From Acidobacteriota bacterium (GTDB taxonomy: Bacteria; Acidobacteriota; Vicinamibacteria; Marinacidobacterales; SMYC01): 64,000 bases of DNA. The notes under the pieces were generated by a model. It did not search any database, was not told the DNA's origin, and saw nothing but the letters and a program-made list of their open reading frames with translations. Positions 12,651-36,708 of this stretch are shown here, piece after piece (within the stretch, counting starts at the first letter, position 1; the number at the start of each line of letters is the position of its first letter). The stretch spans positions 11,041-75,040 of the forward strand of contig SMYC01000142.1 in NCBI GenBank assembly GCA_004356105.1, written 5' to 3'. The position numbers and the translations under genes are program-made.

Positions 12651-12883
12651 AATCTTGTGGATTCTGTTCTAGATCAATACTCAAGGTAGACGTCGTGCGG
12701 CGCCGCCTCGGCGAAGTGCTCAGAAGCGCCTGACGGTCGCATACAGGACTAGTGCCAGAGCGGGGGAGCGGGCGGGCCTGTGTAGTCGTGTGAGAGCGCC
12801 GATGATACAATAATCGGCACGGGTTGAGCAGAAAACCCGCTTTGTTGCACGTCATTCAGGAATGTTTCTCGTCTTTAAGGCCG

Positions 12884-15088: not shown

Positions 15089-15222
15089 CGAACGCCGATG
15101 ACTGCTTCCGATATCGACTCCGCGCAAAATAGGGATCCCTATCTGTCGAGCTAGGGTGGATCCCATCGCCGCGCGCGGCGGAGTTACTGGACCCGCCTGT
15201 TCGAGGTTCTCGGATGGCTGAG

Positions 15223-15690
15223 CTATTGCGGCATGACGCCGACCGGCAGAACGAGCTGGATGGTCCAACGCGCGTCTTCGCGTCGGTCGAGCCGCACCAG
15301 CGACGCTGGATGAAAAACGAGCAACGGCATGCTTTCGTCTTGAGCCAAAAGAGCGCCCGCGATCCGGTTCAAGTAAGGCAGATGGCCCACGACCATCACG
15401 TTTTGCTGCAAGCCCGCGGCCTCGCGGCGCAGGGGGTTGATGTCATCATCGGGTCCGATGCCGCTCACCGGGCTTCGAGGACATTGAAGGATTTTTTCGA
15501 ACTCTTGCGCTGTTTGCACCGCGCGTAGCTTTTCGGAGTGTCGTATCTCGGCGACCCGCACGCCGAGGCGTGCTGCGAAAGTGGCGCATCGTCGGACGTT
15601 AGCGAGACCGGCTTCGGTGAGCGGTGGCCCGCCGTCCGCGTCTCCCAAATTGGGGTCCACATCACCGTGTCGAACCAGGTAGAGCTCCAT
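15223..15690 (-). CDS. sixA: Phosphohistidine phosphatase SixA
   Basis: LYLVRHG, PLTEAG, HSEKLRAVQTA, VMVVGHLP; start moved to ATG 15690 (AGGAG upstream). Confidence 0.85.
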   Translation of the reverse strand: MELYLVRHGDVDPNLGDADGGPPLTEAGLANVRRCATFAARLGVRVAEIRHSEKLRAVQTAQEFEKILQCPRSPVSGIGPDDDINPLRREAAGLQQNVMVVGHLPYLNRIAGALLAQDESMPLLVFHPASLVRLDRREDARWTIQLVLPVGVMPQ

Positions 15691-17551: not shown

Positions 17552-19879
17552 TCAGCTTTGCTGCAAGCGCCGCGCTGACTGAAGCTCGCGCTCCGCGTCT
17601 TCGACCCGACCTTGCCTGTTGTAGATATCGGCGAGGATGAAGTGGCCGAAGGGCGCCATCGAAGGATTCGGGCTGAGCTCGATGCCTCTAGAAGCGAGCT
17701 CCTGCGCTTTGTCCAAGTTCCCCGAATCGAGATGGAGCTTCGCGAGGTACAGATGGCCGATGGCGAAGCTTTCATTGGCCCCGATGGCGGCCTCGAAGTG
17801 TTCCTTCATTTTGCGCGGGCGCCCCGTCTGGCCGTAGAGCTTGCCGAGATTGAAGTGGGCTTTGAAACCTTTCGGCGAGACGTCGATCTCCTTCACGTAA
17901 GCTTCGATGGCCGCGTTCACATCGCCGCGCTCTTCGAAAATGAGAGCAAGGTTGTAATAGGCCGTGGGAAGCTCCGCGTTCATCTCGAGCGCGCGATGGA
18001 CTTCCTGCTCGGCGATGTCGAGCTCCTTCAAGCCGAAATAGCACTCCGCCATCAAATTGTGTAGCGGCGCCCGCTCGCTCCCGATATCGGCGACCTGTTT
18101 GAGAAGCTCGATCGCCTTCTCGAACTCGCTGCGGTTTGCATGGCTCTTGGCGAGCATGAAATGCGCGCGGCTGTCGCGCGGGTCGAGCTCGATGAGGCGT
18201 CGGTAACCGGCGTCGGCGTCATCGGGCCGTCCGAGCTCCTGATAGGTCAGGGCGAGGCCGAAGAGCGCGGGCGTGTATTCGGGGTCTCGAGCGAGCGCCT
18301 CTTGATAAGCTGCCAATGCCCGCTCGAGGTCACCGTCCTTCGTGAGAAGATTGCCCATGATGTTATGCGCTTCGAGGATGCCAGGGTCCTCGAGCAAGAC
18401 TTGCTCGATCTTGGCAATCGCTTCCGTGATGCGGCCCTCGCTCGAGTCCGAGCCCGCATCCTTGATCAAGTTGAACAAGCCGATCTTGTCCTTCGGATCG
18501 GCGAGCGGTCGGTCGGGATCGATGTTGACTTTCGATGGGCCGCCTAGATAACCGAGCGCGGCGAGCTGTTGCTGGGTTTCCGCGTCGAGTGTCTCGGGCG
18601 CCTGCTCGTCGATCCCTTCCACCCCGAGCTCTGCGATGAGCGCGTCGAGCTTCGCTTTCAGTCGGCCCACGGTCGCAGCGCGCTGGTTGGCCAAGTTCGT
18701 CTGCTGGCGCGGATCCTCACGAACATCGAAAAGCTCCGGTCGCGGCGCATCGATGAAGTGGAGCGACTCGTTGCGAATCGATTTCAGCTCCGACCATCCG
18801 TAGTGGTTGCGCGGGTAGAAAGATTCGCCATAGGCGTAGAGTCCGAGATCGTCCATCTCGCCGCTCGCGAGCGGGACGAGGCTCGTTCCTTGCACCGCCT
18901 CTGGCGCTTCGATACCCACGAGCTCGAGCAGCGTCGGCATCAAGTCGATCGATCGCACTTGAGCCCCGACGCGGCGGCCGCCGCCGAGTTGGCGGTATGG
19001 GGTCTTGAGGATGAACGGCACCCGCATTGTGGCGTCGTAGATGAAAAAGCCGTGCGTGTTCTCTTTGTGCTGGCCGAGGCTCTCGCCGTGGTCGGCGATG
19101 AAGACGACGATCGTATCGTCCTCGAGACCGTTCGTTTCGAGCCAATCGAAGAGCTCGCCCATGAGGCTGTCCACATAGGCGATCTCTGCGTCGTAGCGGC
19201 TCCCACGGTAGCCTTGATATTGGGAGAAGAAAGGCTCCGGCGCTTCCCAAGGTGTATGCGCGTCGTAGAAATGGAGCCACGAAAAGAACGGGCCGTCTTT
19301 GACGTCGTCCATCCACCCGAGGGCTTCTTCGAGCACTTCGCCCCCAGGTCGCTGTACGGTGTCGAGCGCGATTCTCTCGAATTTCTGAAAATCGAACTCG
19401 TCGTAATAGCGATCGAAACCTTGGCTCAGACCCCAGCGCGAGTCGAGAACGAAAGCGGCGACGAAGCCTCCCGTTTTGTAGCCGTTATCCCGGAGTGTCT
19501 CCGCCAGCGTCTGGTGCTTTTCGTCCAGATAGTAGCCGCCATTGTCGCGGACGCCGTGATACATGGGGAAAGTTCCCGTAAACATCGACGCATGGGAAGG
19601 GAGCGTGAGCGGTACGACGGTACTTGCGTTCTCGAACAAGACGCTCTCGGCGGCCATGGCATCGAGGTGGGGTGTGCGGACGCGTTCATAGCCGTAGGCC
19701 GGAAGGCGGTCTGCCCGGAGCGTGTCCGCCGTGACGAGCACGATGTTTACCCGGCGATACGGCTCGGGAATCGCTCGGCGCATGAGCCAAAAAAACGCGC
19801 CCACGAGAACCGCGCCGGCCGCAGCGGCAACTAGGAGCCCCTGACGATGACGGCGGGGTGTGCCCTTTTCCTTGCTCAT
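17552..19879 (-). CDS. Sulfatase-like (alkaline phosphatase superfamily) hydrolase with C-terminal TPR repeats
   Basis: N-terminal TM, LVTADTLRAD, PLTLPSHASMFTG, HFYDAH, IADHGE, VPFI; about 8 TPR-like units from residue ~480. Confidence 0.9.
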   Translation of the reverse strand: MSKEKGTPRRHRQGLLVAAAAGAVLVGAFFWLMRRAIPEPYRRVNIVLVTADTLRADRLPAYGYERVRTPHLDAMAAESVLFENASTVVPLTLPSHASMFTGTFPMYHGVRDNGGYYLDEKHQTLAETLRDNGYKTGGFVAAFVLDSRWGLSQGFDRYYDEFDFQKFERIALDTVQRPGGEVLEEALGWMDDVKDGPFFSWLHFYDAHTPWEAPEPFFSQYQGYRGSRYDAEIAYVDSLMGELFDWLETNGLEDDTIVVFIADHGESLGQHKENTHGFFIYDATMRVPFILKTPYRQLGGGRRVGAQVRSIDLMPTLLELVGIEAPEAVQGTSLVPLASGEMDDLGLYAYGESFYPRNHYGWSELKSIRNESLHFIDAPRPELFDVREDPRQQTNLANQRAATVGRLKAKLDALIAELGVEGIDEQAPETLDAETQQQLAALGYLGGPSKVNIDPDRPLADPKDKIGLFNLIKDAGSDSSEGRITEAIAKIEQVLLEDPGILEAHNIMGNLLTKDGDLERALAAYQEALARDPEYTPALFGLALTYQELGRPDDADAGYRRLIELDPRDSRAHFMLAKSHANRSEFEKAIELLKQVADIGSERAPLHNLMAECYFGLKELDIAEQEVHRALEMNAELPTAYYNLALIFEERGDVNAAIEAYVKEIDVSPKGFKAHFNLGKLYGQTGRPRKMKEHFEAAIGANESFAIGHLYLAKLHLDSGNLDKAQELASRGIELSPNPSMAPFGHFILADIYNRQGRVEDAERELQSARRLQQS

Positions 19880-20030
19880 CTCGGGTGCTATGCGATTCTA
19901 GCACTCCCTCCTTCTCTCGCACGTTGCTGTCACCCAGATGAAGCTTTGCCCTACACATCCCCGCATGCGCGAGTGTGGGAAGGCGCGACACCCTGACAGA
20001 ATGACGGCTAATGGACGTAGAATGCCCAAC

Positions 20031-21716
20031 ATGTCGCGAGCGTTGCTGTTTCAGCTCCTGTTTGGTCCCTTCATCGTACTCGCGAACGCCCAGGAAAAGC
20101 CCGTTTTTCGAGACGCGCTCGAAGGCTCCGGAATCGATTACATCAACGTTAGCGGTGAACCGGACAAGCGCACCATCGTCAGCACGCTAGGAAGTGGGGT
20201 CGCGATGTTCGACTACGACGAGGACGGCGACCTCGATCTTTATTTCGCGAATGGCGCGCGGCTCGCGGGCGGCCGTGTCGAAGAGGTCACGAGCGACCGT
20301 CTCTATCGAAACAACGGTGACTGGTCTTTCGAAGACGTCACCGCGCGCGCGGGCCTCGGAGACAGGGGCTGGGCGATGGGGGTCGCGGTGGGAGATGTCG
20401 ACAACGACGGTGCGCCCGATCTCTACGTGACGCGTATCGGCACAAACCTCCTCTATCGCAACCGTGGCGACGGAACGTTCGAGGAGATCGCAGAGGCCTC
20501 CGGTGTCGCCGACGGTGCGTGGGGTACGAGCGCCGCGTTCTTCGACGCCGAAGGTGACGGAGACCTCGATCTCTACGTCGCCAACTATATCGACATCGAT
20601 CTCGACGCTTTCCCGCCTCCGGGGCAAGAAGCGCGCTGCCAATGGTTCGGGCTCGACATCATGTGCGGGCCAAAGGGGCTAGAAGGGGCCTCGGATGTCT
20701 TCTTTCTGAACGAGGGGGACGGCAGCTTCTCGGATGGGACGGCGGCCGCCGGGTTGAGCGATCCGACCGGGGCTTATGCGCTCGGCGTGGTCATCGGCGA
20801 CTACGATGACGACGGGGATCTGGATGTTTATGTCGCCAACGATTCGGCGCCGAACTTCCTTTATCAAAACGACGGCTCGGGCCATTTTACCGAGACCGCG
20901 TTCTTGTCGGGCGTTGCGCTCTCGTCGGACGGCCTCGCCCAAGCGGGGATGGGGGTGGACATCGGGGATCTCAGCGGCGACGGACGGCTCGATCTCTTCG
21001 TCACCAACTTTTCCCATGAGACGAACAACGCGTATTTCAACCACGGCCATGGCCTCTTCATCGACAGTGTCGGGGCGGCGAACTTGCACGGGCCGAGCTG
21101 GTTCTCCCTCGGCTGGGGGACCCGCATGGTCGATTTCGATCACGACGGCGACCTCGATGTCTTCGTCGCGAACGGACATGTTTATCCCGGTGTCGATCGG
21201 AGCAATTTGAAGACGCGCTACCATCAGGCGAATCAGATCTTCTGGAACGACGGCACGGGTGTGTTCTCCGAACATGAGTTTGCCCAGGGTGACGCGATGA
21301 CGCGCATGGCCGCGAGTCGGTCGGCCGCATTCGGCGATGTCGATGGCGACGGCGATGTCGATGGCGTCATCGTGAATATCGATGCGGCGCCCTCGCTGCT
21401 CGTCAACGAGCTCGAGGGCGAGCGCCGGGGGGTGCTTTTCCGGCTCGTCGGGACCCGCGGCCCGCGCGACGCGATCGGCGCGCGTATCACTATCATTATC
21501 ACTGTCGAGGCGGGCCACGTCCGTCAAATGCGGGAGATCCACCCATCCGGGAGTTTCCTTGCGTCGAGCGATGGCCGCGCGCATTTCGGCTGGTCGGGCG
21601 AGGACTGGGTAGAACGTGTGCAGGTGCGCTGGCCCGGCGGCAGGGTCGAATCGTTCAGCGTGTCCGAGGCCGGGATCGTCATGACACTCGTGGAAGGGAC
21701 AGGAGTTTCTCGATGA
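20031..21716 (+). CDS. CRTAC1-family protein (FG-GAP/VCBS repeats plus ASPIC/UnbV domain)
   Basis: Repeated DxDxDGDxD motifs, NLLYRNRGDGTF, DAIGARI, GSFLASSD; signal peptide; start placed 7 nt after TAGAAT. Confidence 0.88.
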   Translation: MSRALLFQLLFGPFIVLANAQEKPVFRDALEGSGIDYINVSGEPDKRTIVSTLGSGVAMFDYDEDGDLDLYFANGARLAGGRVEEVTSDRLYRNNGDWSFEDVTARAGLGDRGWAMGVAVGDVDNDGAPDLYVTRIGTNLLYRNRGDGTFEEIAEASGVADGAWGTSAAFFDAEGDGDLDLYVANYIDIDLDAFPPPGQEARCQWFGLDIMCGPKGLEGASDVFFLNEGDGSFSDGTAAAGLSDPTGAYALGVVIGDYDDDGDLDVYVANDSAPNFLYQNDGSGHFTETAFLSGVALSSDGLAQAGMGVDIGDLSGDGRLDLFVTNFSHETNNAYFNHGHGLFIDSVGAANLHGPSWFSLGWGTRMVDFDHDGDLDVFVANGHVYPGVDRSNLKTRYHQANQIFWNDGTGVFSEHEFAQGDAMTRMAASRSAAFGDVDGDGDVDGVIVNIDAAPSLLVNELEGERRGVLFRLVGTRGPRDAIGARITIIITVEAGHVRQMREIHPSGSFLASSDGRAHFGWSGEDWVERVQVRWPGGRVESFSVSEAGIVMTLVEGTGVSR

Positions 21717-21731
21717 AGGTCCCCGGGGGGA

Positions 21732-21760
21732 TTGACAGGAGGCACCAGTTTCGGTACAAA
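21732..21760 (+). promoter_or_regulatory. Sigma70-like promoter TTGACA-17-TACAAA upstream of the TonB-dependent receptor
   Basis: Perfect -35, 17-nt spacer, 4/6 match at -10. Confidence 0.5.
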
Positions 21761-21902
21761 CGCTCCAATTGGTTGGACTTGAATCCACTGATGTGGATCT
21801 CGGGACGGGCAAGGCTCTAATTGGTCGTAAATGGATTTCGCGAAAACTCAATCCGGCCATGTACTTAGCGAGCACGACGCGTCACGTTCACGTTCAAAGC
21901 CG

Positions 21903-21918
21903 TGGCACAATGATTGCT
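21903..21918 (+). promoter_or_regulatory. Sigma54 (RpoN) -24/-12 promoter TGGCAC-AATGA-TTGCT
   Basis: Exact GG-N10-GC spacing and TGGCAC/TTGCW consensus, 63 nt upstream of the receptor start. Confidence 0.7.
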
Positions 21919-21981
21919 TTAGTTTATAGCGGGGGGTCCGTCGACTCTCCATTGTTTGATTCAGGCAGGAGGTACAAATTG

Positions 21982-24783
21982 ATGAGTAGCCGCTTGATAC
22001 TTCTGGGTCTCATTTTCGCGTTGCCGGCTGCCGTGATGGGGCAGGTCAATCTTGGCTCCATCGACGGCACGATCCGTGACGGATCAGGAGGTGTGCTGCC
22101 CGGCGCAACCTTGGTGCTGACGTCACCGGAGCTTCCGGGTGGTCCTCAAATGTTCACGACCAACGATCAGGGCCGGTATCGCTTCCGGAATCTTCCTCCG
22201 GGTGATTACCAGCTCACGATCGAGATGCCCGGATTCGCGACGTACCGGGAAGAAGGTCTCATTGTCACGCTAGGCGGCAACGTGGAGCGCAACGTCAATA
22301 TGAGCGTGGCGTCCGTCGCCGAGACCATCACGGTGACCGGCGAGAGCCCGATCGTCGACACCCGCAAGTCGGGTCTCTCCACGAACTACGACGACAGCAT
22401 GATGGAGAACATCCCTCTCCGTCGCTTCAGCATGTTCGACTTCACCAAGTCGGCGCCAGGAATGTCGGCGACGAACCCGACGAGCGGCTCGAGCACGCGT
22501 GTTTCCGCTTATGGGTCGAACACGGACGAAAACACCTATCTCATGGACGGCACGGACTTCACCGCACCGGTCTCAGGCGCGGCCTGGCCGTGGCCGGACA
22601 CGGACACCATCGAAGAGATCGAGATCATCTCCCTGGGCGCCTCGGCAGAGTACCAAGTCGGTGGCGGTGCGGTCTTCAATGCGATATCAAGGCAGGGCAC
22701 GAATGAAGTAAGGGTGGACGCCGCCTACTTCGGGATGTCCGACGCGATCACGTCCAAACCCATCAAAAGGGGTTGCGGCGGATGCCCCGATGGCGACGAG
22801 AACGGCGAGACCGGCTTCACCCGGGACAAGTACATCGACTTCACGACGCACGTGGGTGCACCCATCGTCAAGGACAAGGCTTGGATCTATGCCGGTTACC
22901 AGTACCTGCGGGACTATGACAACCAGCCCGGCACCGACCCTCGGTTTCCGAGGCAGTTCGAGGCGGATCGCATCAACTGGAAGTTCACGTGGCAGATTAC
23001 CGAGAACATGAAGTTCATGCATACCTACCACGACGACTACTGGGTCATCCCGCAGACGCCGAGCATCACGGCTCCTTTCGAGTCCATCCTGACGTTCGGC
23101 GGCCGCAATCCGTCCATTACGTTCGGTAACATCACCCACGTGCTCTCGCAGGATACGTTCTACGACGTGCGCGTGTCGGGCTTCTACTCGCCGGATGATT
23201 ATGCGAGGCCCAACGGTAACTTCGGCCAGTCGCGCCGCGAGGACACCGCCACGGGTCAGATCAGCGGCGGCCCTCCGTTCTCCGGTGGGTTCCGCCAGGC
23301 CCGTACTGCGGTCCACGGCAAGCTGTCCCACTATGCCTCGGACTGGATGGGCTCAGACCACGACTTCAAGTTCGGCGTCCAATACGTGGTCGGACAGCAC
23401 AGTGGTCACTACGGCTACACCAACGACATCATTTATTACGACTACAACGGTGCGCCCGACTACGCCTACATCCGTGAGCGCTACAACTACGGTGGCAAGT
23501 TCACGGACCTGGGATTCTTCGTGGAGGACATGGTCCATATCGGCGACCGGGCCACGGTTCAGATTGGAGTCCGCTACGATCGCGTCGAGGCCATCAGTCA
23601 GGATGTCCAGTTCATGGAGCAGGACGACCGGGGTGTGATCCCCGTTTCGGGACAGGAAGTGACGGGGCTGGGAACGCTCTATACGAACAACAACATCGCC
23701 CCCCGTATCGGCTTCAACATCAAGCTCGACAACGAGGGCAAAACCGTGCTGCGCGGAAACTGGGGGCTCTACTTCCGCCAGCCGATCACCGGTGAGATCG
23801 CAGCCGTCCACCCTGGCAACACGACGATTACAACGGCGTTCTTCGATCCGGCCACCGGCGGGTATACCGATATCGTCGATGTCTTCGATCCCCTTGTAAA
23901 TATCGGAGTCGCTTCCGATACGGTCTCACCGAGGACGAGCCAGTTCTCCATCGGAATCGATCGGGAGGTGACGAACGACATTGCCGTCGGGTTCACCTAT
24001 ATCCGGAAGGACGGCAGCAACTATAACGGCTGGATCACCCAGAATGCGTTGTACGAGCCCGGCCAGGTCACGTTGGATGACGGATCGCAACTCGACGTCT
24101 TTAACATTACGACGGACCCCAGCGATCGCTTCTATCTGCTCGGCAACTGTCCGTGTGGTCCTGAGTCGATGAACTTCCCCAACTTCTTCATGGACTATGA
24201 CGGTCTCGAGTTCAAGGTGACCAAGCGCATGGCGAATAATTGGCAGGCCTTGATCTCGTACAACTATTCTCATGTCCGTGGGCTCATGGGCCGCAACTAT
24301 GCCGGCCCCTCGAGTAGCCAGGAGAGCAGGGTACGCAGTGGCGCCATCGGTCGGGATCCCAACCAATTCACGAACGCGGAAGGGAACCTCCTCAACGATC
24401 GCCCCCACACGTTCATTTTCACCGGAACCTATGAGTTTCCAGGCATCGAGCTTCTCATCGGCGCCAACTACCGGTACTTTACCGGCAAGCCGTGGGCCTC
24501 TCAGGCCCGTCCGCGCCTGCCCCAAGGGCGGCAGCCCATCTATCTCGAGCCGTTGGGCTCGAGGCGGCTTTCGTCGCAGAACAACTTCGACTTGAGAATC
24601 TCGAAGATCTTCCGTTTCGGTGAGGCCGGGAAGTTTGAGATCTTCGCCGACATTCTCAATGTGCTGAACGAGACGGCGGAAGAGGATATCGAGTCGCGGA
24701 ACGCTTTCAGCAGCAACCTCGGAGTGGGCGACCGCTGGGTGGATCCGAGACGAGCGTTCGTCGGCGTAAAGTTCGCCTACTAG
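21982..24783 (+). CDS. TonB-dependent receptor, Oar-like, with an N-terminal carboxypeptidase-regulatory-like domain
   Basis: Signal peptide, GSIDGTIRDGSGGVLPGAT, GRYRFRNLPPG, ETITVTGESPIVD, IEEIEII..GASAEY, C-terminal PRRAFVGVKFAY; start moved to 21982 (AGGAGG upstream). Confidence 0.92.
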   Translation: MSSRLILLGLIFALPAAVMGQVNLGSIDGTIRDGSGGVLPGATLVLTSPELPGGPQMFTTNDQGRYRFRNLPPGDYQLTIEMPGFATYREEGLIVTLGGNVERNVNMSVASVAETITVTGESPIVDTRKSGLSTNYDDSMMENIPLRRFSMFDFTKSAPGMSATNPTSGSSTRVSAYGSNTDENTYLMDGTDFTAPVSGAAWPWPDTDTIEEIEIISLGASAEYQVGGGAVFNAISRQGTNEVRVDAAYFGMSDAITSKPIKRGCGGCPDGDENGETGFTRDKYIDFTTHVGAPIVKDKAWIYAGYQYLRDYDNQPGTDPRFPRQFEADRINWKFTWQITENMKFMHTYHDDYWVIPQTPSITAPFESILTFGGRNPSITFGNITHVLSQDTFYDVRVSGFYSPDDYARPNGNFGQSRREDTATGQISGGPPFSGGFRQARTAVHGKLSHYASDWMGSDHDFKFGVQYVVGQHSGHYGYTNDIIYYDYNGAPDYAYIRERYNYGGKFTDLGFFVEDMVHIGDRATVQIGVRYDRVEAISQDVQFMEQDDRGVIPVSGQEVTGLGTLYTNNNIAPRIGFNIKLDNEGKTVLRGNWGLYFRQPITGEIAAVHPGNTTITTAFFDPATGGYTDIVDVFDPLVNIGVASDTVSPRTSQFSIGIDREVTNDIAVGFTYIRKDGSNYNGWITQNALYEPGQVTLDDGSQLDVFNITTDPSDRFYLLGNCPCGPESMNFPNFFMDYDGLEFKVTKRMANNWQALISYNYSHVRGLMGRNYAGPSSSQESRVRSGAIGRDPNQFTNAEGNLLNDRPHTFIFTGTYEFPGIELLIGANYRYFTGKPWASQARPRLPQGRQPIYLEPLGSRRLSSQNNFDLRISKIFRFGEAGKFEIFADILNVLNETAEEDIESRNAFSSNLGVGDRWVDPRRAFVGVKFAY

Positions 24784-24804
24784 CGCATCGAGGAGTTTGA
24801 CTCC

Positions 24805-24834
24805 ATGGCGGGGCTTCGGCCCCGCCATTTTTTT
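24805..24834 (+). terminator. Rho-independent terminator after the receptor
   Basis: ATGGCGGGGC-TTCG-GCCCCGCCAT (cUUCGg loop) followed by a T run. Confidence 0.9.
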
Positions 24835-24838
24835 GTGT

Positions 24839-27643
24839 CTAGCGCGCGCTCCGGTACTCGGCGAGACGCGCGCGGATGGCTCGTGCGAGCGCTTCGTCAG
24901 GAGGCGCCAGCCGGAAGGCTTTCTCGGCTGCCGTGGCGGCTCGCTCGAAGTCTCCCGCGGCGGCGTAGGCCTGCGACAGCGTGTCGAGCACCTCGGCGCT
25001 TTGTTCGTCGGTCGCTCCTGCGGCGGATTCCGCGAGCCGGATAGCGCGCTCCGGATCGCGGCGGCTCGGGTCGTCATGTGACGCGAGCACACCCGAAAGC
25101 CCGACCTGAGCGGAAATAGATTCCGGATCCGCCGCGAGCGCCGCCTCGAAGTGCTCGATAGCATCATCGAGACGGCCCGCCAGCTTGAGCGCCCAGCCCA
25201 AGTTGTTCTGTGCCGAAGGTGTGGCGGCGTCTTCCGTCGAGATCGCCTGCTCGAAGGCTTCGATGGCTTCGTCCTGTCTTCCCAGGGAGGCGAGCGCGAT
25301 GCCGAGGTTGTTGAGCGCCTCGCCGTAGCGCGGCTCTATCGCGATCGCACGACGGTAGCTCGCCATCGCATCCTGCGTCCGTTCCGCGGCTTGGTGCACA
25401 AGCCCGAGGTTGTAGTGGGCCTCCGCGCGATCGGGCTCGAGGCCAATCGCCCGGCGAAAGCTCGCGGCCGCGTCGTCGGAGCGGCCCTGCAGGACCAGGA
25501 CGTTTCCTAGAGCGATGTGCGCGTCGGGGAGCCTCGGCTCTAGGGACAGCGCTTTGCGGTGCTCGGCGGCAGCCTCGTCGAGCCGGCCCTCCTCCTTGAG
25601 AGCGACGCCGAGGTTGTTGTGCGCGCGCGCGAACCCGGCGTCGATCTCAATCGCCCGTCGGTAGTGAAACATCGCCTCATCGATTCCGCCGTGGGGAAAA
25701 AGCGCGTTGGCGAGATAGTAGTGGGCGGTGCTGGAGTCGGGTTCGAACCGCACGAGCTGGCGGTAGTGCTCGACTTCTTCGGCCTCCGATTGTTCCGGTA
25801 TACGCGTGGTCGTCCCATCGAGCAGGTAATGTTCGACGAGGGCCGCGAGGGGCTTCTCGCGCTCGTCCTCGAACATGTAGAAGCGGTAGCCGAAATGCTC
25901 CAGCCGCGTTTCGAGCATGTCGTCGAGCCCGATCTGCGCGAACTGGCGCACGAGCATGTATTTGCTGTCGAGCGCGCCGAAGAGCTCCGGGAGCGCCCAG
26001 TCGGCTCTTGCTTTCGTCAGGACGTCGGCGGCCACCATTTGCGTCGTAGGATGCCAGCTTCGCAGCCACAAAAGCGTGGCCGCCGTGGTCCTCTCTATCT
26101 CAGTCGCTTCGTACTGCGCGCCGTACCACTGTTCGAGCTTCGCCAACGTCCAGGCGAGCGTCTCCCGAACGTGGCACATGTTGCACGCGTTCGGCTGATT
26201 CGCCTCGATCATCTCGCGGTTCGTCGGGCTGAAGATCATGTGCGTGCGCACCATCGCCTGCAGCCCCTCGTTGATACGCGGCATGTGGCAGTTCATACAG
26301 CGGCTGCCGGTGCTTCCCATGGGATGGCGCGTGTGGCCGACGCGCTCGGGCTCGGGCTCGAGCTCGGTGTGGCACTTCAGGCACAACCCATCGTCCTCGT
26401 CCGGCGTTCTCGACCACGCCTTCCCCGTGGTCTCGTGCGGGTTGTGGCAATCGATGCAGCGCAACATCGCGCGCTCCGGCTCGTCGGACCGGTAGCATGC
26501 GCCTTTCATCGCGTCGCTGTGCTCGGTCGAGTTCCATGTGCCCATCCCGGCGGCGTACTCGAAGCGTGTGCCCTGGTGGCACCGGCCGCAGGTCCAGTTC
26601 TGGTTGACCGGATTGCGCGCCAAATCCACCGCCGGGTCGGTGCCGTCGATGAAGAGCCGCGGGCTCGTGGGGAACATGCGCGGCAGTATCGCCCCTCCGC
26701 TCTCGACGTGCGCGCGGTTGCCGTAGTGGCACGCCTCGCAGCTGATACCCGACGTGAGCTCCCACACGGGGGCTTTCTTGTGGGTAATGCGCAGCAAAAG
26801 CTCTTGCACGTCATCCAGCTCGAGCCGCGACGGGTCCTTGCCGGCTAGAAGCTCCGCGTGGTTGTCGGCGACGTAAGATCTCAGGTCGAACGAGAAGCCG
26901 CGCGGGCTCATGGGAAAGGACGGCTGGCGGTGGATGAGCCAGTCGCCCGTCGGCATGGTCGTGTGGCACTGAGAGCAGGACTGCGCATAATCGTGGACCG
27001 CGGGCTGCGTGAACGGATCGCGCCGCATGGCATCGATGAGGCTGGGCTCGCCTTCACGGGTTTTCTCCACGTGCACGACGGGAACCCACTGGGTGTAGTC
27101 GAGCCAGTAGCCGAACGGGAGCACGTGCTCGGACCGATAGATTCTGTGCCCCATCGGCTCCGGCCCTTCGATCTGGAGGCCCACGTAGTACTGAAAGAAT
27201 CTCGATCCGATGGTCTGCGTGACGTGGTACGTCCGCCCCGTGTCGCCCCGGACGAGACGCATGAGGTATCGATCGTTCTCCCGCGCGAACGTGGCGCGCC
27301 CGCCGAAATAGTCGATAAAAGCATGCCCGGAAAAATCGCCTTTGACGGTCGCTTCGGTGGCGGGCGCGTTCATGAAGCGGTGACGGTGTTGCGACCAGCG
27401 CTGGTACTTGTCCTCGTGGCACGTCTTGCAGGCCTGCGGGCCCATGAAATCCGCGGGCTCGATGTTGCTGAAATCCGCGGTCGAGAGGCTGCTCCGTTTC
27501 ACAGATTCCGGGACGTCGTCCCACCAGTAGCGGATGTCTGGATCGCGGGAGACCTGGAAGACGCGCGACTGCTGGCTCGACGACGTGGTGGCGAGCAGAA
27601 CGGTGACGAGGGCCACTCCGAGGCAGCAGGACGCGGTCCGCAC
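24839..27643 (-). CDS. Exported multiheme c-type cytochrome (8 CxxCH) with a C-terminal TPR array
   Basis: CKTCH, CSQCH, CEACH, CGRCH, CIDCH, CLKCH, CMNCH, CNMCH; about 8 TPRs after residue ~630; start moved to GTG 27643 (GGAG 7 nt upstream). Confidence 0.9.
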   Translation of the reverse strand: MRTASCCLGVALVTVLLATTSSSQQSRVFQVSRDPDIRYWWDDVPESVKRSSLSTADFSNIEPADFMGPQACKTCHEDKYQRWSQHRHRFMNAPATEATVKGDFSGHAFIDYFGGRATFARENDRYLMRLVRGDTGRTYHVTQTIGSRFFQYYVGLQIEGPEPMGHRIYRSEHVLPFGYWLDYTQWVPVVHVEKTREGEPSLIDAMRRDPFTQPAVHDYAQSCSQCHTTMPTGDWLIHRQPSFPMSPRGFSFDLRSYVADNHAELLAGKDPSRLELDDVQELLLRITHKKAPVWELTSGISCEACHYGNRAHVESGGAILPRMFPTSPRLFIDGTDPAVDLARNPVNQNWTCGRCHQGTRFEYAAGMGTWNSTEHSDAMKGACYRSDEPERAMLRCIDCHNPHETTGKAWSRTPDEDDGLCLKCHTELEPEPERVGHTRHPMGSTGSRCMNCHMPRINEGLQAMVRTHMIFSPTNREMIEANQPNACNMCHVRETLAWTLAKLEQWYGAQYEATEIERTTAATLLWLRSWHPTTQMVAADVLTKARADWALPELFGALDSKYMLVRQFAQIGLDDMLETRLEHFGYRFYMFEDEREKPLAALVEHYLLDGTTTRIPEQSEAEEVEHYRQLVRFEPDSSTAHYYLANALFPHGGIDEAMFHYRRAIEIDAGFARAHNNLGVALKEEGRLDEAAAEHRKALSLEPRLPDAHIALGNVLVLQGRSDDAAASFRRAIGLEPDRAEAHYNLGLVHQAAERTQDAMASYRRAIAIEPRYGEALNNLGIALASLGRQDEAIEAFEQAISTEDAATPSAQNNLGWALKLAGRLDDAIEHFEAALAADPESISAQVGLSGVLASHDDPSRRDPERAIRLAESAAGATDEQSAEVLDTLSQAYAAAGDFERAATAAEKAFRLAPPDEALARAIRARLAEYRSAR

Positions 27644-27647
27644 CGGG

Positions 27648-29492
27648 TTACTCCGCGCCTTTGATGATCTTCCTGATTCGGCTCCGGGCTTCGTCCGCTG
27701 CGCCGGCATCGCCGCGCGCCGTGTGCACCGACAACATCGTCTGGTAAAGCGAAAGCTCGTTCGGCATTCTCACGAGGCCTTCGTCCAGCACCCGTTTGGC
27801 GTCGTCGAGACGATCGCGGGACAGATAGAAGTCGCCTAGATAGACGTAAGGAAGCGGGTCGTCCGGTGCGAGGTTCTTCGCGGCGTTTAGAAGCGCCAGC
27901 GCCCGGTCATCGTCTTCGGCCTCCGACGCCGCGACCGCCCCGTTGAGAAGATTCAGAAGCTGCTCGGAGCGCTGGGCGGCAAGCTCGCTCCTGCGCTCGC
28001 GCTCGGCGAACTCTTCGAGAAGCGCGTTGCGCTCGTCGAGCCGGCCGAGCTTCACCAGCTCCGCGCCGAGGCGGTAGTAAAGTCGCGTCTGCTCCGGGTC
28101 GAGCTCGAGCGCGCGCTGCCAAGAAGCCGCGGCCGCGGCCGGATCGTTCTGGCGCGACTCCACGACGCCTTTCTGGTACCAGGCTTCCGCGTTGTCAGGC
28201 GCCATCGCGATCACGCGGCCGAGGTAGTCGAGCGCGGTCTCGTGCTCGCGCAGGTTGAGATGGACCACACCGAGCTGCAGTAGTGATCCGACGAAGTCCG
28301 GGTTGCGCTCGAGCACCTTGTGGAGCACCGCTTTGGCTTCGTCCCACCGGCCCATCACCGAGAGCAGGTTGCCCCAGTCGTGGTAGAGCTCGGCGCTGTC
28401 TGCTCCCGCTTCCGCCGCGCGCTCATAGGCCGCTTCCGCGGGCTCGTATTCCAGCAGCTCGTGATGGGCGAGGGCCATCAGGTGGTACGCCCGAGGTGCG
28501 AGCTCGGGCACGGTGGCCCCATCGCGCGCGCTTTCCACGACCTGCGCGTGCAGCCGCAGTCGCAGCTCGACCTCGGCAAGAGCGAGCGAGGTCTTGGGGT
28601 TGGGCGCGAGCTCGAGCGAGCGCTCCAAAAGGCGCACCGCGTGCAGGCCAAAAGGATTCGCGGAGCCCGGAGCGAGCGTCTCGCCTTCCTGAAAGAGAAA
28701 CAGACCTTTGAAGTAGTGGGCGGTCGCGAGATCGGGCTCTTTTTCGAGCGCGCGATCGAGGGCGCGCTGCGCCTCTTCGTACTCTCCGAGCCTGCCGAGC
28801 GCCATGCCAAGCCGAAGGTCCGATTCCGCGAGCTGATAGCCGTTCTCGAGGGCCCGTAGCACGTCGTCCGCGGATTCCCGATAGCGCTCCTCCTCGAAGG
28901 CAACGATCCCTCTCAAGAGCCACGCGCGCCCCACTTCCGGATGCTTGGCCACCAGATCGTCGAGGTGAGCCCTGGCCTCGTCGAGCTGCGACAAACGGAC
29001 CTGACAGCGAGCGAGGCCGAGCGCGAAGCGGATGTTCTCGGGCGGGAGAAAGGCGAGGCCCTTCCGGTAGACTTCGGCCGCCTCGTCGAAGCGCTCCAGC
29101 GCCTGCAACGACCGGCCCAGGTTGAACAGCGCCTTTGCCCGGCGGGGCTGCACCGCGAGCGCCGCCCGGAGCGGCGCCACGGCGTCGGCGTGACGGCCCG
29201 ATTGCGCGAGCGCCAGTCCGTAGACGGTGTTGGCGGTGGGGGAGCGATCGGCCTTGGGCACCCCCTGGATCAACGGCTCGATGATCTCGAGCGCGCGCTC
29301 GGGCCGCTCCGTGTTGAGAAACAGGTTCGTCAAGAGCATTTTCGCCTGGACCTCGTCTGGGGCGATGTCGATCGCCTCGCGGAAGGCCTGCTCGGCCTCA
29401 CCCATCCGGCCCGCCTCGAGGGCTTCGAGACCGCGCGCCAGGGTCGCGTCCCAGCTTTGGATCGCGAGCGCGATTGCGAACAGCCACTGCAT
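27648..29492 (-). CDS. Exported tetratricopeptide-repeat protein
   Basis: Short signal peptide then continuous TPR-like helical repeats (ALFNLGRSL, AHYFKG, AWYQKG). Confidence 0.88.
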   Translation of the reverse strand: MQWLFAIALAIQSWDATLARGLEALEAGRMGEAEQAFREAIDIAPDEVQAKMLLTNLFLNTERPERALEIIEPLIQGVPKADRSPTANTVYGLALAQSGRHADAVAPLRAALAVQPRRAKALFNLGRSLQALERFDEAAEVYRKGLAFLPPENIRFALGLARCQVRLSQLDEARAHLDDLVAKHPEVGRAWLLRGIVAFEEERYRESADDVLRALENGYQLAESDLRLGMALGRLGEYEEAQRALDRALEKEPDLATAHYFKGLFLFQEGETLAPGSANPFGLHAVRLLERSLELAPNPKTSLALAEVELRLRLHAQVVESARDGATVPELAPRAYHLMALAHHELLEYEPAEAAYERAAEAGADSAELYHDWGNLLSVMGRWDEAKAVLHKVLERNPDFVGSLLQLGVVHLNLREHETALDYLGRVIAMAPDNAEAWYQKGVVESRQNDPAAAAASWQRALELDPEQTRLYYRLGAELVKLGRLDERNALLEEFAERERRSELAAQRSEQLLNLLNGAVAASEAEDDDRALALLNAAKNLAPDDPLPYVYLGDFYLSRDRLDDAKRVLDEGLVRMPNELSLYQTMLSVHTARGDAGAADEARSRIRKIIKGAE

Positions 29493-29694
29493 GTGCGCAG
29501 TTTACCTGATTCGCTCGGCGCGTACCCGATCCGAAGTTCTCGATTCTGCCGTCGATCGAAAAAAAGGCTCGAGGAAGCGGCCGATTGACGTCAGATCGCC
29601 CTGTCGCTAACGACACCTACCGTGGATTGGCGAACAGGACCCAACACCTTGAATCGAGTGCGTCGCCTCAGCTCTTTGAACACGAGCCTTTGCA

Positions 29695-31755
29695 TCACGG
29701 TAGCAGCTCGTAGCCGGGTTTGGCCTCTACTACCAGAATTCGTTGGTCTGCGGCGACATTATGCAACACCCGGCGGGCGCCAGCGGGCCAACGGATCTCT
29801 AGCTCGTCGGCCGAAGTCGCTTCGCCAAGGCCGAATTCCAAGATCAGGCTGTTCGTCGAGCCAAAGCCCCCGCCAATCGTAACTTCTTGCATTACAAGGG
29901 TTTCGCCGAATCGCACGCGCACTTGCGCCCCCACCGCATCACGGTGGCCCGTCGTTCCCCGCAGCTTGACGTGTAGCCAGTGGTTCGACGTTCCGGGATT
30001 GCGATAGAGCGCGTCGGCTTGGCGGTCCCCGAGAAAAGCACCGCCCGTGGGTACGTAGATGTCGAGATCGCCATCGCCGTCGTAATCGGCGAAGCTCACG
30101 CCGTGCCCTTTGCCGAGATGGTCGACACCCGCCGCGGCGCTGATATCGGTGAAGACGCCGTTACCCCCGTTCAGGAAGAGCTTGTTGGGCTCGAAACGCT
30201 CGATCGCCGGGGCCCCGCATCCGAGATAAATGTCGAGATACCCGTCATTGTCGATGTCGCCGAAGCTCGCCGCCATCGCGCCGAAGTTCTTCGCGAGCCC
30301 AGCGGCTTCGGCGAGCTCCGTGAAGGTCCCGTCCTGATTGTTACGATAGAGCGCGAGCCGGCTCGCCTCGTTCACTGCTGCGCCCGCCCGCGCGCTCCTC
30401 AAGGCTTCTTCCATCTTTGCCGCGAAGCCAACGATGAAGATGTCGAGCCAGCCGTCGTTGTCATAGTCGAAGAAAAATCCCACGAAGCCTTGGTACGGGC
30501 GTGTGATCCCGGCGCTCCGGCTGACGTTCGAGAAGCTCTGTCCTTGATTGTTATGGTAGAGGGCGGGATGGCCGAAGAAGTTAACGACGAGCAAGTCCGG
30601 CCAGCCGTCGTTGTCGTAGTCGCCGAAAGCCGAGCCGATGGAGCGGCCGTGATTCGCCACGCCGTAGCGATCCGCGACTTCGGTAAACGTCCCGTTGCCG
30701 TTGTTGAGAAACAGCTCGTTGGGGCTTCCGCCTTCCGTCGCGACGCCGTTTGCGACGTAGAGATCGAGGTCGCCATCGTGATCGATGTCGGCAAAGGCTG
30801 CGGTGAAGCTGTCGCGGGCGCCTGCGACCCCGGCGCGCTCGGCGACGTCGATGAAGACACCTTCGTCGTTACGATAAAGACTGTTGGGAAGCTCGCCGTC
30901 CCAGCCGTCGCGCGTCACATAGAGGTCGGGGTCGCCGTCATTGTCGTAATCGGCCCAGAGCGCCGACCAGCCGCCTGTCGGATCGAAGAGACCCGAGTCC
31001 ACTGTAATATCTGTGAACGTACCGTTGCCGTCGTTGCGATAGAGTGCGTGTGGATCGTGGATCCCGACAGCAAAGAGGTCGAGGTCGCCGTCGCCGTCGA
31101 CATCGCTCCAACCACTGCCACGGGCGCGGCTATAGCGCGTGATGCCCGAGCGCTCGGCGACGTCTTCGAAAACGATGGGGGACGGGCCGATACCTTCGGT
31201 CGAAAGCTCCAAACGATATTTTGTCGGAAGCGAGGCGGGATCCTCGCCCGCGAATCGCATCGCGAGCGCGAGATTCCAGCGGGGCTCTAGTAGAGACGGA
31301 TTAGCGTCCACCGCACGTTTCAGAATATCGACCGCTTCTCGGTAGCGCTCGAGCCGCATCAGCGTGGCGCCGAGAGAGTACAACGATAGGTAGTAGTCGT
31401 CCTCGGCGGCGAGCATGTGCTGGAGATCCGAGACCGCTTCTTCGTACGCCCCGAGGCGCATACGGACGACGCCACGATAGTGGAACTGTCGGGGGTTTCT
31501 CGGGTCGAGCTCGATGGCCCGGCTCAGGTGGTGGTCCGCCTGTTCGAGGCCAGTCAGGCCCCGCTGGATATAGGCAAGCCCCGCATAAAAATGGGCGTCG
31601 TGGTGGCTCGGGTCGAGCGCAAGCACGTAGAGGAACTGGTCGATTGCCTTGACGTAGAGCTTTTTTCCCAAGAGCTCGTAAGCGTGGTCGAAGTGTCGCT
31701 CCGCCAGCTCCTTGGGCGATTGAGCGAGCAGGGCCAGCAGAAAAAGGATGCGCAT
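29695..31755 (-). CDS. TPR plus CRTAC1-family (FG-GAP and ASPIC/UnbV) protein
   Basis: N-terminal TPRs, DVDGDGDLD/DYDNDG repeats, NHWLHVKL.G...DAVGAQV, GGFGS. Confidence 0.9.
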   Translation of the reverse strand: MRILFLLALLAQSPKELAERHFDHAYELLGKKLYVKAIDQFLYVLALDPSHHDAHFYAGLAYIQRGLTGLEQADHHLSRAIELDPRNPRQFHYRGVVRMRLGAYEEAVSDLQHMLAAEDDYYLSLYSLGATLMRLERYREAVDILKRAVDANPSLLEPRWNLALAMRFAGEDPASLPTKYRLELSTEGIGPSPIVFEDVAERSGITRYSRARGSGWSDVDGDGDLDLFAVGIHDPHALYRNDGNGTFTDITVDSGLFDPTGGWSALWADYDNDGDPDLYVTRDGWDGELPNSLYRNDEGVFIDVAERAGVAGARDSFTAAFADIDHDGDLDLYVANGVATEGGSPNELFLNNGNGTFTEVADRYGVANHGRSIGSAFGDYDNDGWPDLLVVNFFGHPALYHNNQGQSFSNVSRSAGITRPYQGFVGFFFDYDNDGWLDIFIVGFAAKMEEALRSARAGAAVNEASRLALYRNNQDGTFTELAEAAGLAKNFGAMAASFGDIDNDGYLDIYLGCGAPAIERFEPNKLFLNGGNGVFTDISAAAGVDHLGKGHGVSFADYDGDGDLDIYVPTGGAFLGDRQADALYRNPGTSNHWLHVKLRGTTGHRDAVGAQVRVRFGETLVMQEVTIGGGFGSTNSLILEFGLGEATSADELEIRWPAGARRVLHNVAADQRILVVEAKPGYELLP

Positions 31756-33264: not shown

Positions 33265-33825
33265 ATGTCGCTTCTAGGGTTCGCCAAATGGCTCGCGGAG
33301 ACGCAGTGGAGCATAGCGCTTCACGAATCGCTTTGGGTCTATCCCCTCGTCGAATCCACCCATGTGTGGGCGCTGGCATTGTTCTTCGGCTTCGCGACGG
33401 TTCTGGATTTACGACTATTGAGCCTCGCTTTGACGCAGGTCCCGGTCTCTGAAGTAGCAAAAAGACTCTTGCCTTGGACGATCGCGGGTTTCATCGTGAT
33501 GATCGTCACCGGCGCGCTCCTGTTCTACGCGATCCCCGTCCGGACCTATCAGAGCATCTTCTTTCGAGTGAAGGTGTTCCTACTTATAGTCGCCGGCATC
33601 AATGTGTGGGTGTTTCACTCGACGATTTGGCTGCGCGTTGCTGAGTGGGATCGGGATCCCGTGACGCCTAAAAGGGCGCGATTTGCGGGTGCGGCCTCGC
33701 TCGTTCTCTGGGTGTGTATCATTTTCGCGGGGCGCATGATCGCCTATAATTGGTTCGACTGCGATCGGCAGCCGCAGCCCCCGATCGTCAACTGGGCGGC
33801 CGGATGCGTTGTGGAGCCGGAGTGA
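33265..33825 (+). CDS. DUF6644-like four-TM membrane protein (copy 1)
   Basis: ESLWVYPLVESTHVWAL, DLRLL, TGALLF, FRVK, IFAGRMIAY. Confidence 0.8.
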   Translation: MSLLGFAKWLAETQWSIALHESLWVYPLVESTHVWALALFFGFATVLDLRLLSLALTQVPVSEVAKRLLPWTIAGFIVMIVTGALLFYAIPVRTYQSIFFRVKVFLLIVAGINVWVFHSTIWLRVAEWDRDPVTPKRARFAGAASLVLWVCIIFAGRMIAYNWFDCDRQPQPPIVNWAAGCVVEPE

Positions 33826-34298
33826 TGCTTCTCCCGCTCTTCGAATGGTTCGAGCTCACGACGGTGGGCGAGATAATCCGTACTTCGACGTGGCTGTTTC
33901 CCTTCATCGAGGCGTTTCACCTCGTTGCCTTCGGAGTTGTCGGAGGCGCCGTGCTCCTCGTAGATCTCCGCCTGATTGGGCTTGCGTTTCGATCGCAACC
34001 CGTCGCGCAGGTTGCGCAGGAGATGAAACCGTGGCTGCAGCGAGGCGTAGCTGTTGCTGTCGTCTCCGGGAGCTTGCTCTTCGTCTCCGAATCCGTGAAG
34101 TGCTACTACAGCGAAGCGTTCTGGATAAAGATCACGGGCCTCTTCTTCGCACTCATCTTCACCTTTACGATTCGCCGCAAAGTATCGATGGCGGAAGCCG
34201 GAAGCATCGGCCCTGTCTGGGGCCGGGTCGTCGGTGTCGTTTCGATCGGGCTCTGGGCGACCGTCGCTTGGGGCGGACGCTGGATCGGCTTTTCCTAG
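33825..34298 (+). CDS. DUF6644-like four-TM membrane protein (copy 2)
   Basis: STWLFPFIEAFHLVA, DLRLIG, SGSLLF, FWIK, WGGRWIGF; ATG overlaps the stop of copy 1 (TGATG). Confidence 0.8.
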   Translation: MLLPLFEWFELTTVGEIIRTSTWLFPFIEAFHLVAFGVVGGAVLLVDLRLIGLAFRSQPVAQVAQEMKPWLQRGVAVAVVSGSLLFVSESVKCYYSEAFWIKITGLFFALIFTFTIRRKVSMAEAGSIGPVWGRVVGVVSIGLWATVAWGGRWIGFS

Positions 34299-34310
34299 CT
34301 TAGCTGCTCG

Positions 34311-35830: not shown

Positions 35831-35846
35831 CGGCCTAGCTCCTCCA

Positions 35847-36698: not shown

Positions 36699-36708
36699 CG
36701 GTCCTCCT

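Follow-up and report, generated by a model that had tools for sequence, protein, structure and literature searches.

We analyzed a stretch of 64,000 nucleotides (hereafter the window) from contig SMYC01000142.1 of a marine Acidobacteriota bacterium (assembly GCA_004356105.1), in which six neighboring genes, here called g1 to g6, encode predicted envelope proteins. We interpret this cluster as a composite locus in which recurrent envelope modules are arranged around an Oar-type TonB-dependent receptor, similar to a nutrient-utilization locus that carries a redox module. We assign this reading a probability of roughly 45%; its support comes from genomic and sequence data. On the same grounds the six gene families probably work together in the cell envelope. 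A first-pass annotation of the window had placed six open reading frames (ORFs) at 17552–31755, and these positions proved to be exact. Its domain calls were borne out by Pfam for each of the six proteins, including tetratricopeptide repeat (TPR) scaffolds in four of them (g1, g4, g5 and g6) and FG-GAP/ASPIC propellers in two (g2 and g6). Since the flanking genes (coding for a Ser/Thr kinase-WD40 protein, a phosphorylase-like protein and ThiI) are unrelated, the limits that it gave for the cluster are also correct. The cluster comprises the following features:

17552–19879, minus strand: g1, 775 aa, Sulfatase domain (PF00884, 168.7 bits) with a C-terminal TPR array
19938–21716, plus strand: g2, six FG-GAP_3 repeats and UnbV_ASPIC, a CRTAC1/ASPIC-family propeller
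21769–24783, plus strand: g3, CarboxypepD_reg, Plug and OMP_b-brl_4/TonB-dependent barrel, an Oar-like receptor
24805–24828: hairpin between the convergent genes g3 and g4, a putative terminator
24839–27709, minus strand: g4, eight CXXCH motifs and TPR, an octahaem c-type cytochrome
27648–29492, minus strand: g5, 614 aa, TPR only
29695–31755, minus strand: g6, 686 aa, N-terminal TPR followed by an FG-GAP_3 and UnbV_ASPIC propeller

The six genes form three transcription units (g1, g2-g3 and g6-g5-g4) and not a single operon. On the minus strand g1 is divergent from the plus-strand pair g2-g3, with a gap of 58–151 bp, and g2 lies directly upstream of g3. The units g2-g3 and g6-g5-g4 converge on the hairpin, which has a GC-rich stem of 10 pairs (8 of them G-C) and a loop of 4 and is followed by a T-run (TTTTTTGTGT). 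The first gene of the minus-strand block is g6, at a spacing of about 200 bp from g5. The stop codon of g5 (TAA, 27650–27648), a GGAG sequence and the GTG start of g4 at 27643, 4 nt past the stop, abut each other, and g5 and g4 are therefore translationally coupled. Besides this GTG, probable true starts are Met32 for g2 (20031) and Met72 for g3 (21982). With these starts a hydrophobic N-terminal signal or anchor can be read by eye on all six proteins, which are accordingly predicted to be exported.

We distinguish two modules. The first would consist of g1 and g3 with g2 between them, pairing the receptor with an anchored, TPR-tailed esterase of the sulfatase fold that has a threonine as putative nucleophile. 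In the second, g6-g5-g4, the exported octahaem cytochrome would be combined with a TPR-CRTAC1 propeller and a protein that is TPR throughout. In the mechanism we propose, an organic substrate with ester groups would pass the outer membrane through the receptor g3, powered by TonB, with the propellers acting as calcium-dependent binders that capture the substrate. In the periplasm the anchored esterase g1 would then remove phosphoester or other ester groups. Within the accessory module g6-g5-g4 the cytochrome might link the respiratory chain by electron transfer to the substrate or to a partner in the periplasm, and the TPR arrays may hold the interchangeable parts close to each other or close to the receptor.

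One line of evidence that the families belong together is their distribution in the genome of this bacterium, a draft assembly of 6.77 Mb in 335 contigs with the window on contig C299. We called 5887 ORFs, which are crude, and labeled families by phmmer or home-made profiles with a Pfam check in selected cases. On this basis the genome encodes 24 CRTAC1, 11 Oar-like, 34 sulfatase-fold (3 of them with TPR), 71 TPR and 9–10 multihaem proteins. Multi-copy families such as these, which are abundant in the phylum, could be neighbors by chance, all the more as other genomes likewise contain 2–28 copies of UnbV_ASPIC. We therefore shuffled the labels among the genes 2000 times and counted neighbors within ±3 genes. 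CRTAC1 genes were found near 5 of the 11 Oar-like genes (0.24 expected), and TPR genes near 14 of the 24 CRTAC1 genes (1.6 expected), values that none of the 2000 shuffles reached. For multihaem genes near CRTAC1 we observed 3 of 9 against an expectation of 0.19, which 1 shuffle reached, and for sulfatase-fold-TPR genes near CRTAC1 2 of 3 against 0.06, which 6 shuffles reached. In six loci of this genome a receptor gene is directly preceded or followed by a CRTAC1 gene. Paralogous clusters with a similar mixture of genes, named after their contigs, are:

C318: sulfatase-fold-TPR, Oar and CRTAC1 genes
C178: a CRTAC1 gene adjoining a sulfatase-fold-TPR gene
C77: three CRTAC1 genes, TPR genes and an Oar gene
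C152: a haem-TPR gene, three CRTAC1 genes and an Oar gene
C246 and C101: a CRTAC1 gene adjoining an Oar gene
C122 and C249: a multihaem gene adjoining a CRTAC1 gene

A similar association is found outside this genome. In a metagenome contig (L001) the genes g5, g4, g3, g2 and g1 are present in the same order and orientation with identities of 67, 64, 83, 62 and 69%, respectively, and the flanks of this block are wholly different from those in the window. A second locus (L005) retains g6-g5-g4 at 69–73% identity (73% for g6). We further collected 82 octahaem neighborhoods (79 genome loci and three metagenome loci) and grouped the neighboring proteins by unsupervised clustering. CRTAC1 ranked first among the neighbor families, in 17 of the 82 loci, and Oar-like receptors second, in 14. 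All 14 Oar cases fall within the approximately 17 octahaem loci of the acidobacterial type, and the CRTAC1 cases span Acidobacteriota, Planctomycetota and Verrucomicrobiota. Given the 2–28 UnbV_ASPIC copies per genome, a CRTAC1 gene would be expected within ±10 kb of an octahaem gene in only about 4% of the loci. Direct adjacency of octahaem and CRTAC1 genes was checked with Pfam in four loci (L028, L030, L047 and L069); in the first of these, from Verrucomicrobiota, the order is TPR, octahaem, CRTAC1.

We also assessed an even sample of 150 Acidobacteriota genomes, 151 with the present one included. Receptors similar to g3 occur in 103 of the 151 genomes, enzymes similar to g1 in 99 (with up to at least 12 copies) and propellers similar to g2 in 61. 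The pair counts rest on the matches listed per genome and are lower bounds, and the expected values assume uniform placement of families that are all multi-copy. Among the matches listed, 27 of 147 Oar cases, in 22 genomes, had a g1-like gene within 3 kb, where about 0.9 would be expected. CRTAC1 was accompanied within 10 kb by a g1-like gene in 9 of 141 cases among the matches listed (1.25 expected) and by an Oar gene in 5 of 141 (0.45 expected). In longer stretches, operons with the order esterase-TPR, Oar, GWxTD-TPR were found, some of them with 4-nt overlaps (L122).

The absence of co-occurrence in relatives had been named in the first-pass annotation as the result that would speak for coincidence. 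Instead, the families co-localize in this genome, L001 keeps a five-gene core in spite of its changed flanks, and the association extends across three phyla. Together with the permutation tests, the approximately 6- to 30-fold enrichments across 150 genomes and the first and second rank of CRTAC1 and Oar among octahaem neighbors, this rejects chance adjacency, an explanation that is already largely refuted and to which we leave no more than a marginal share. The same annotation had proposed a periplasmic or surface complex that couples outer-membrane uptake to redox and hydrolytic processing. Co-localization supports this proposal in part. The data speak against a fixed complex, as the parts vary between loci and are encoded in three transcription units, and the octahaem orthologue is rare in comparison to the widespread pair of Oar and esterase; the coupling of uptake to redox chemistry would be conjectural.

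This variability raises the question of whether we are looking at two separate systems that merely share neighborhoods: a nutrient module of receptor and esterase (g1-g3) and a redox module of cytochrome and CRTAC1 (g4-g6), without a common substrate and without contact. In many Acidobacteriota, Oar and the Thr-type esterase, often with GWxTD-TPR, indeed occur without the cytochrome, while in Planctomycetota and Verrucomicrobiota the octahaem protein, with or without CRTAC1, occurs without the receptor. In the phylum sample none of 25 members of the haem family among the matches listed was located near a g3-like Oar or a g1-like gene, and in the window the modules are convergent with a terminator between them. 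Against a separation, an Oar-like gene stands beside the octahaem gene in 14 of the approximately 17 acidobacterial-type loci, in several arrangements, and CRTAC1 is statistically linked to both modules. The five-gene block is intact in L001 despite its new flanks, and the TPR tail of g4 is also found on esterase heads beside Oar and CRTAC1 genes. We consider two independent systems a serious but somewhat unlikely alternative to a composite locus.

The receptor g3 is the best-conserved gene of the cluster, as seen from its 83% identity in L001. All of its Pfam matches are above the cut-off (CarboxypepD_reg 65.7, Plug 25.7, OMP_b-brl_4 126.7 and TonB_dep_Rec_b-barrel 37.1 bits) and give it an Oar-like architecture. 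It has a signal peptide (MSSRLILLGLIFALPAAVMGQ), and a TonB-box-like motif, ETITVTG, was seen by eye ahead of the plug. A sequence search of g3 against solved structures found nothing. The same succession of carboxypeptidase-regulatory-like domain, plug and large barrel is expected for Oar of Myxococcus xanthus, which is reported to be needed for secretion of the protease PopC (PMC6434023). Oar has thereby been implicated in protease export; for g3 an inward direction is presumed.

The barrel might consequently work outward, as part of a secretion or envelope-biogenesis apparatus in which the cargo of the Oar-like protein is a polymer or a protein such as the CRTAC1 propellers, with the TPR-tailed esterases serving to modify an exopolymer or lipid. 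TPR scaffolds, outer-membrane barrels and periplasmic modifying enzymes typify the systems for cellulose, poly-N-acetylglucosamine and alginate, and threonine- or serine-nucleophile members of the fold of g1 include the transferases EptA, LtaS and BcsG. The six loci with a CRTAC1 gene directly before or after the receptor gene would fit such a role, as would weak, sub-threshold NCBIfam matches of the cluster to PgaA, BcsC and PrsT. The PgaA and BcsC models score 30–50 bits, however, where the cut-offs are 367–858, and no synthase or glycosyltransferase gene is located in or beside the cluster. On these grounds we rejected membership in the synthase-dependent exopolysaccharide export systems (BcsC, PgaA, AlgK/E). 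In addition, g1 has one transmembrane segment and not the multi-helix lipid-binding domain of EptA and LtaS, and the solved structures closest to it are those of hydrolytic enzymes, namely sulfatases and phosphonate monoester hydrolases. Like importers, g3 carries a plug and a TonB-box-like motif. An outward-working barrel therefore seems improbable to us, and the composite uptake locus remains our preferred interpretation.

The esterase assigned to this locus, g1, differs from what its Pfam label suggests. The Sulfatase match covers residues 45–323 (profile positions 2–301), TPR repeats begin at about residue 490, and an N-terminal segment (GLLVAAAAGAVLVGAFFWLM) is the likely anchor; in the g1 family a signal anchor or lipobox is found directly ahead of the catalytic domain. 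The best sequence matches of the head are S1 sulfatases and phosphonate monoester hydrolases (PMHs; 7p24, 7oz8, 2vqr and 2w8s, E-values 1e-30 to 1e-35). In the alignment T-L-P-S-H stands where the solved sulfatases have C/S-x-P-x-R. Because Thr-x-Pro-x-His replaces Cys/Ser-x-Pro-x-Arg, g1 is not a formylglycine sulfatase and, judged by its sequence, cannot make formylglycine. The pattern P-L-T-L-P-x-H-x-S-x-x-T-G recurs in most of the TPR-fused g1 homologues that we collected from two phyla, a survey in which some protein starts were unreadable. True sulfatases of the same genome have kept CxPxR.

The fold of g1 and its metal ligands are those of the S1 family: VTADT and ADHGE align with ligands of solved sulfatases in an arrangement similar to the Asp...Asp-His of PMHs (reference in PMC12421950). 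In distinction to S1 sulfatases and PMHs, the putative nucleophile is Thr and not a formylglycine derived from Cys or Ser, His takes the place of the motif Arg and Thr that of the second Asp in the N-terminal pair, and a membrane anchor and a TPR tail of 290 aa are present. The Thr is shared with the transferases EptA/MCR and LtaS of the alkaline phosphatase superfamily, but g1 does not belong to these, having a single hydrophobic segment at the N-terminus and reaching only 31–41 bits over about 60–100 residues with the NCBIfam EptA/MCR models, whose cut-offs are at least 500. A polymeric or sulfated/phosphorylated substrate had been suggested in the first-pass annotation. A sulfated one is unlikely for g1 with the formylglycine motif missing, and phosphoester or other ester chemistry is presumed.

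Both propellers are members of the CRTAC1/ASPIC-UnbV family. In g2 we found six FG-GAP_3 repeats (163 bits) and UnbV_ASPIC with 54.6 bits, in g6 six FG-GAP_3 repeats (187 bits) and UnbV_ASPIC with 69.9 bits at residues 607–673 (cut-off 23.4 in both cases), preceded by TPR at residues 24–165. Residues 76–577 of g2 match the solved structure of Cartilage acidic protein 1 (9etn) with E=7e-22. The combination of an FG-GAP calcium-loop propeller and UnbV_ASPIC is common to vertebrate CRTAC1 and bacterial ASPIC/UnbV proteins; the N-terminal TPR array distinguishes g6 from the vertebrate protein. Only the DxDxDG calcium loops are conserved in these propellers. A catalytic or redox role was rejected as there is no conserved His/Cys cluster, and we read the propellers as probable binders and not as enzymes. 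We know of no bacterial CRTAC1/ASPIC member with an established function.

In two loci of Planctomycetota a SCO1/SenC domain, a thioredoxin-fold copper chaperone, is fused N-terminally to a CRTAC1 propeller near the octahaem gene (L074:4057-6789 and L081:6552-9065, both on the minus strand), which hints at a link of propellers to redox or copper handling. A protein of 1842 aa encoded directly upstream of the octahaem gene in another planctomycete locus (L047:3995-9523, plus strand) combines nine FG-GAP_3 repeats with an AMP/ATP-binding domain of the pyruvate-phosphate-dikinase type. In the genome of the window a six-frame search showed one in-frame stop each in the CRTAC1 paralogues C122:22274-23902 (TAG) and C77:1265-2836 (TGA), which may be pseudogenes or assembly errors.

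The cytochrome g4 carries eight CXXCH motifs at residues 94, 245, 324, 374, 418, 443, 471 and 509 and matches the Pfam families Cytochrome_C7, C554 and Paired_CXXCH in addition to TPR. Its octahaem domain of about 600 aa is conserved with about 48% identity across hundreds of proteins from three phyla, with eight invariant CXXCH motifs and nine further invariant histidines. With these nine, all eight haems could be bis-His ligated, a sign that the domain may transfer electrons and not catalyze a reaction. A profile search with this domain in 1.84 billion representatives retrieved 522 clusters with E<=1e-30 and 5419 with E<=1e-3. In the AlphaFold models g4 begins with a domain built on a five-stranded sheet, continues through the haem region into a HEAT-like stretch and ends in the TPR tail; the models contain no haems and have low confidence at residues 335–387 and 421–447. 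A fold search with the full-length model returned TPR proteins only, and the haem-domain model gave a best E-value of 0.15 in Foldseek, a weak test since the model is haem-free and of low confidence in its haem-rich parts. The family is large and matches no solved structure, with this weakness of the fold test in mind.

With its eight c-type haem sites g4 has the haem number of the characterized octahaem enzymes HAO, OTR, ONR and MccA. We rejected an assignment to any of them as family-level sequence similarity is lacking, the fold search, a weak test here, gave no match, and sequence matches to solved structures are at the level of motifs, comprising MccA (4rkm, 3.7e-5), 6i5b and 5ze8 with E-values of 4e-5 to 0.02 over 28–45 residues. 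What these enzymes of the NrfA/MccA/OcwA type have in common with g4 is the motif around the first haem, P-x-x-F-x-G-x-x-x-C-x-x-C-H-x-x-x-Y-x-x-W-S, and a few later sites, as well as, for MccA, the number of eight haems. They lack the N-terminal beta-sheet domain, the HEAT-like stretch and the TPR tail, and g4 has neither a fold match to them nor a CXXCK special site. All eight motifs of g4 end in His, and no CX3-4CH variants were found, longer spacings such as CX15CH not being covered by the search.

A TPR gene lies directly upstream of the octahaem gene not only in the window but also in L001, L002, L004, L005, L016 and L028. A role of g5 as a dedicated apocytochrome chaperone similar to CcmI/NrfG was considered on the basis of a match to PF23914 (68 bits, cut-off 42) and dismissed in this specific form, as unrelated TPR proteins of the genome equal or exceed this score; it is kept as a possibility. 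The window contains a second member of the octahaem family (44574–47389, minus strand, 687 aa) with nine CXXCH motifs, followed by an ORF of 251 aa without a Pfam match.

A large barrel gene adjoining an octahaem gene, as in the acidobacterial loci, is reminiscent of an outer-membrane electron conduit or metal-redox system, in which cytochrome and barrel would reduce or oxidize an extracellular or imported metal (Fe, Mn or Cu). The nine invariant histidines, enough for eight bis-His carriers, and the SCO1/SenC-CRTAC1 fusions beside the octahaem gene in the two planctomycete loci point in the same direction. The plug and TonB-dependent architecture of g3 are unlike porins of the MtrB/OmbB type, though, an extracellular lipoprotein cytochrome is absent from the cluster, the barrel gene is missing at most octahaem loci, and similarity to MtrA/DmsE/OmaB is sub-threshold only. 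We consider such a system very unlikely. Membership in the porin-cytochrome conduits (MtrAB/C, Pcc) was rejected for the plug of g3, the lack of a second cytochrome in the cluster and scores far below cut-off for the DmsE and GSU2203 models.

The TPR tail of g4 (residues 641–956, about 315 aa) connects the cytochrome with other enzyme heads. It is 37–40% identical, end to end, to three tails in this genome, which reach double the score of the next-best TPR protein, a similarity that may be inflated by the repeats. One belongs to a Thr-type sulfatase-fold protein on C318. The other two belong to proteins with a GDSL-esterase head, encoded beside an Oar-like gene on C203 and beside a CRTAC1 gene on C314. 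In sister clusters, GWxTD and DUF1028 are further heads fused to TPR, and a TonB_C fusion, a molybdenum oxidoreductase and an amidase are encoded there as well. Proteins of about 650–720 aa with GWxTD and a TPR tail are a third recurrent partner of Oar and the Thr-type esterase in Acidobacteriota (L120:13861-15900, L121:6438-8393, L122:11416-13398, L124:11480-13633 and, in the genome of the window, C152, L162:2079-4217), and GWxTD genes also lie near the octahaem gene in L002, L003 and L008. In the sister cluster on C77 (L161:10891-13146), three CRTAC1 genes, TPR genes and Oar are accompanied by a TonB_C-DUF1326 fusion and a sulfite-oxidase-type molybdopterin oxidoreductase, a different redox enzyme that takes the place of the cytochrome. 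Taken together, these periplasmic heads with TPR tails appear to form a toolkit that stays close to Oar-type receptors and to CRTAC1 propellers.

A more far-reaching interpretation would see a cellulosome-like system in the periplasm, with the C-terminal TPR arrays as its docking modules. They would recruit interchangeable heads, i.e. Thr-type sulfatase-fold and GDSL esterases, GWxTD and DUF1028 proteins, CRTAC1 propellers and the octahaem cytochrome, to Oar-type transporters, so that imported material is de-esterified and oxidized or reduced at the transporter exit. We regard this as unlikely. If true, multihaem redox chemistry would here be connected directly to TonB-dependent uptake for the first time. 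TPR tails, if they are docking devices, would represent a new organizing principle for periplasmic enzyme sets and account for the high frequency of TPR fusions in these phyla.

Among characterized systems, the composite locus appears to work most like the utilization loci centered on TonB receptors, such as the SusC/SusD loci of Bacteroidota with S1 sulfatases and the CUT loci of Xanthomonas (PMC1790865). Shared features are a receptor gene in the company of genes for exported hydrolases and binding proteins, and a large number of paralogous loci in one genome whose enzyme sets are interchangeable. It does not belong to the SusC/SusD loci by this analogy: no SusD-family match was found in the six proteins or the flanks, and a SusD-like lipoprotein, a glycoside hydrolase and a hybrid sensor are all absent. 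Its receptor instead belongs to the Oar/CarboxypepD_reg type, its sulfatase-like enzyme has no formylglycine motif, the partners are TPR-tailed, and a multihaem cytochrome is part of the neighborhood. None of the six proteins reached an NCBIfam cut-off, and g2 had no NCBIfam match of any kind. Our literature search for the cluster, for ASPIC/UnbV with cytochromes, FG-GAP with multihaem proteins, Thr-type sulfatase homologues, GWxTD and acidobacterial Oar-type receptors found no description of such a system. The only published link of CRTAC1 to multihaem proteins that it returned is a remark on hydrazine-synthase homologues of non-anammox bacteria, where a CRTAC1-family gene is located between or beside multihaem cytochrome genes (PMC12758564). 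The cytochromes of those clusters belong to a different family (homologues of HZS alpha and beta-gamma), and receptor, esterase and TPR are not part of them.

Several points weigh against the composite locus. Three units instead of one operon encode the six genes, and the cluster contains no TonB/ExbBD genes, no SusD-like gene and no regulator. The parts are not obligate partners: g6 is absent from L001, where the ORF of 582 aa in its place is not a diverged CRTAC1, and in Planctomycetota the majority of octahaem loci are free of CRTAC1, Oar and esterase genes in their vicinity. A full-length octahaem orthologue was found in only 3 of the 151 Acidobacteriota genomes. The absence of conserved catalytic or redox residues from the CRTAC1 propellers makes the role given to them a guess. 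Finally, both the assumption of uniform placement in the chance model and the possible inflation of TPR similarity mentioned above count against it.

Soil and ocean harbor Acidobacteriota, Planctomycetota and Verrucomicrobiota in abundance, most of them uncultured. To our knowledge, Oar-type receptors, CRTAC1/ASPIC proteins, TPR-fused sulfatase-fold proteins and octahaem proteins are among their most expanded families, and none of these has an assigned function. Recurrent modules that are statistically linked turn a list of hypothetical proteins into a testable system. The corrected annotation of g1 is of practical relevance as well, as the label "sulfatase" would otherwise feed inferences on the sulfur cycle.

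Two further observations concern the surroundings of the cluster. The Ser/Thr kinase-WD40 propeller fusion (754 aa) is encoded two genes upstream at 12824–15088 on the plus strand; on the opposite strand a longer ORF (12875–15268) without a Pfam match is probably spurious. Just past ThiI, at 33265–36763, a DUF6152/DUF6644 envelope module is located, whose nearness to the cluster may be a coincidence.

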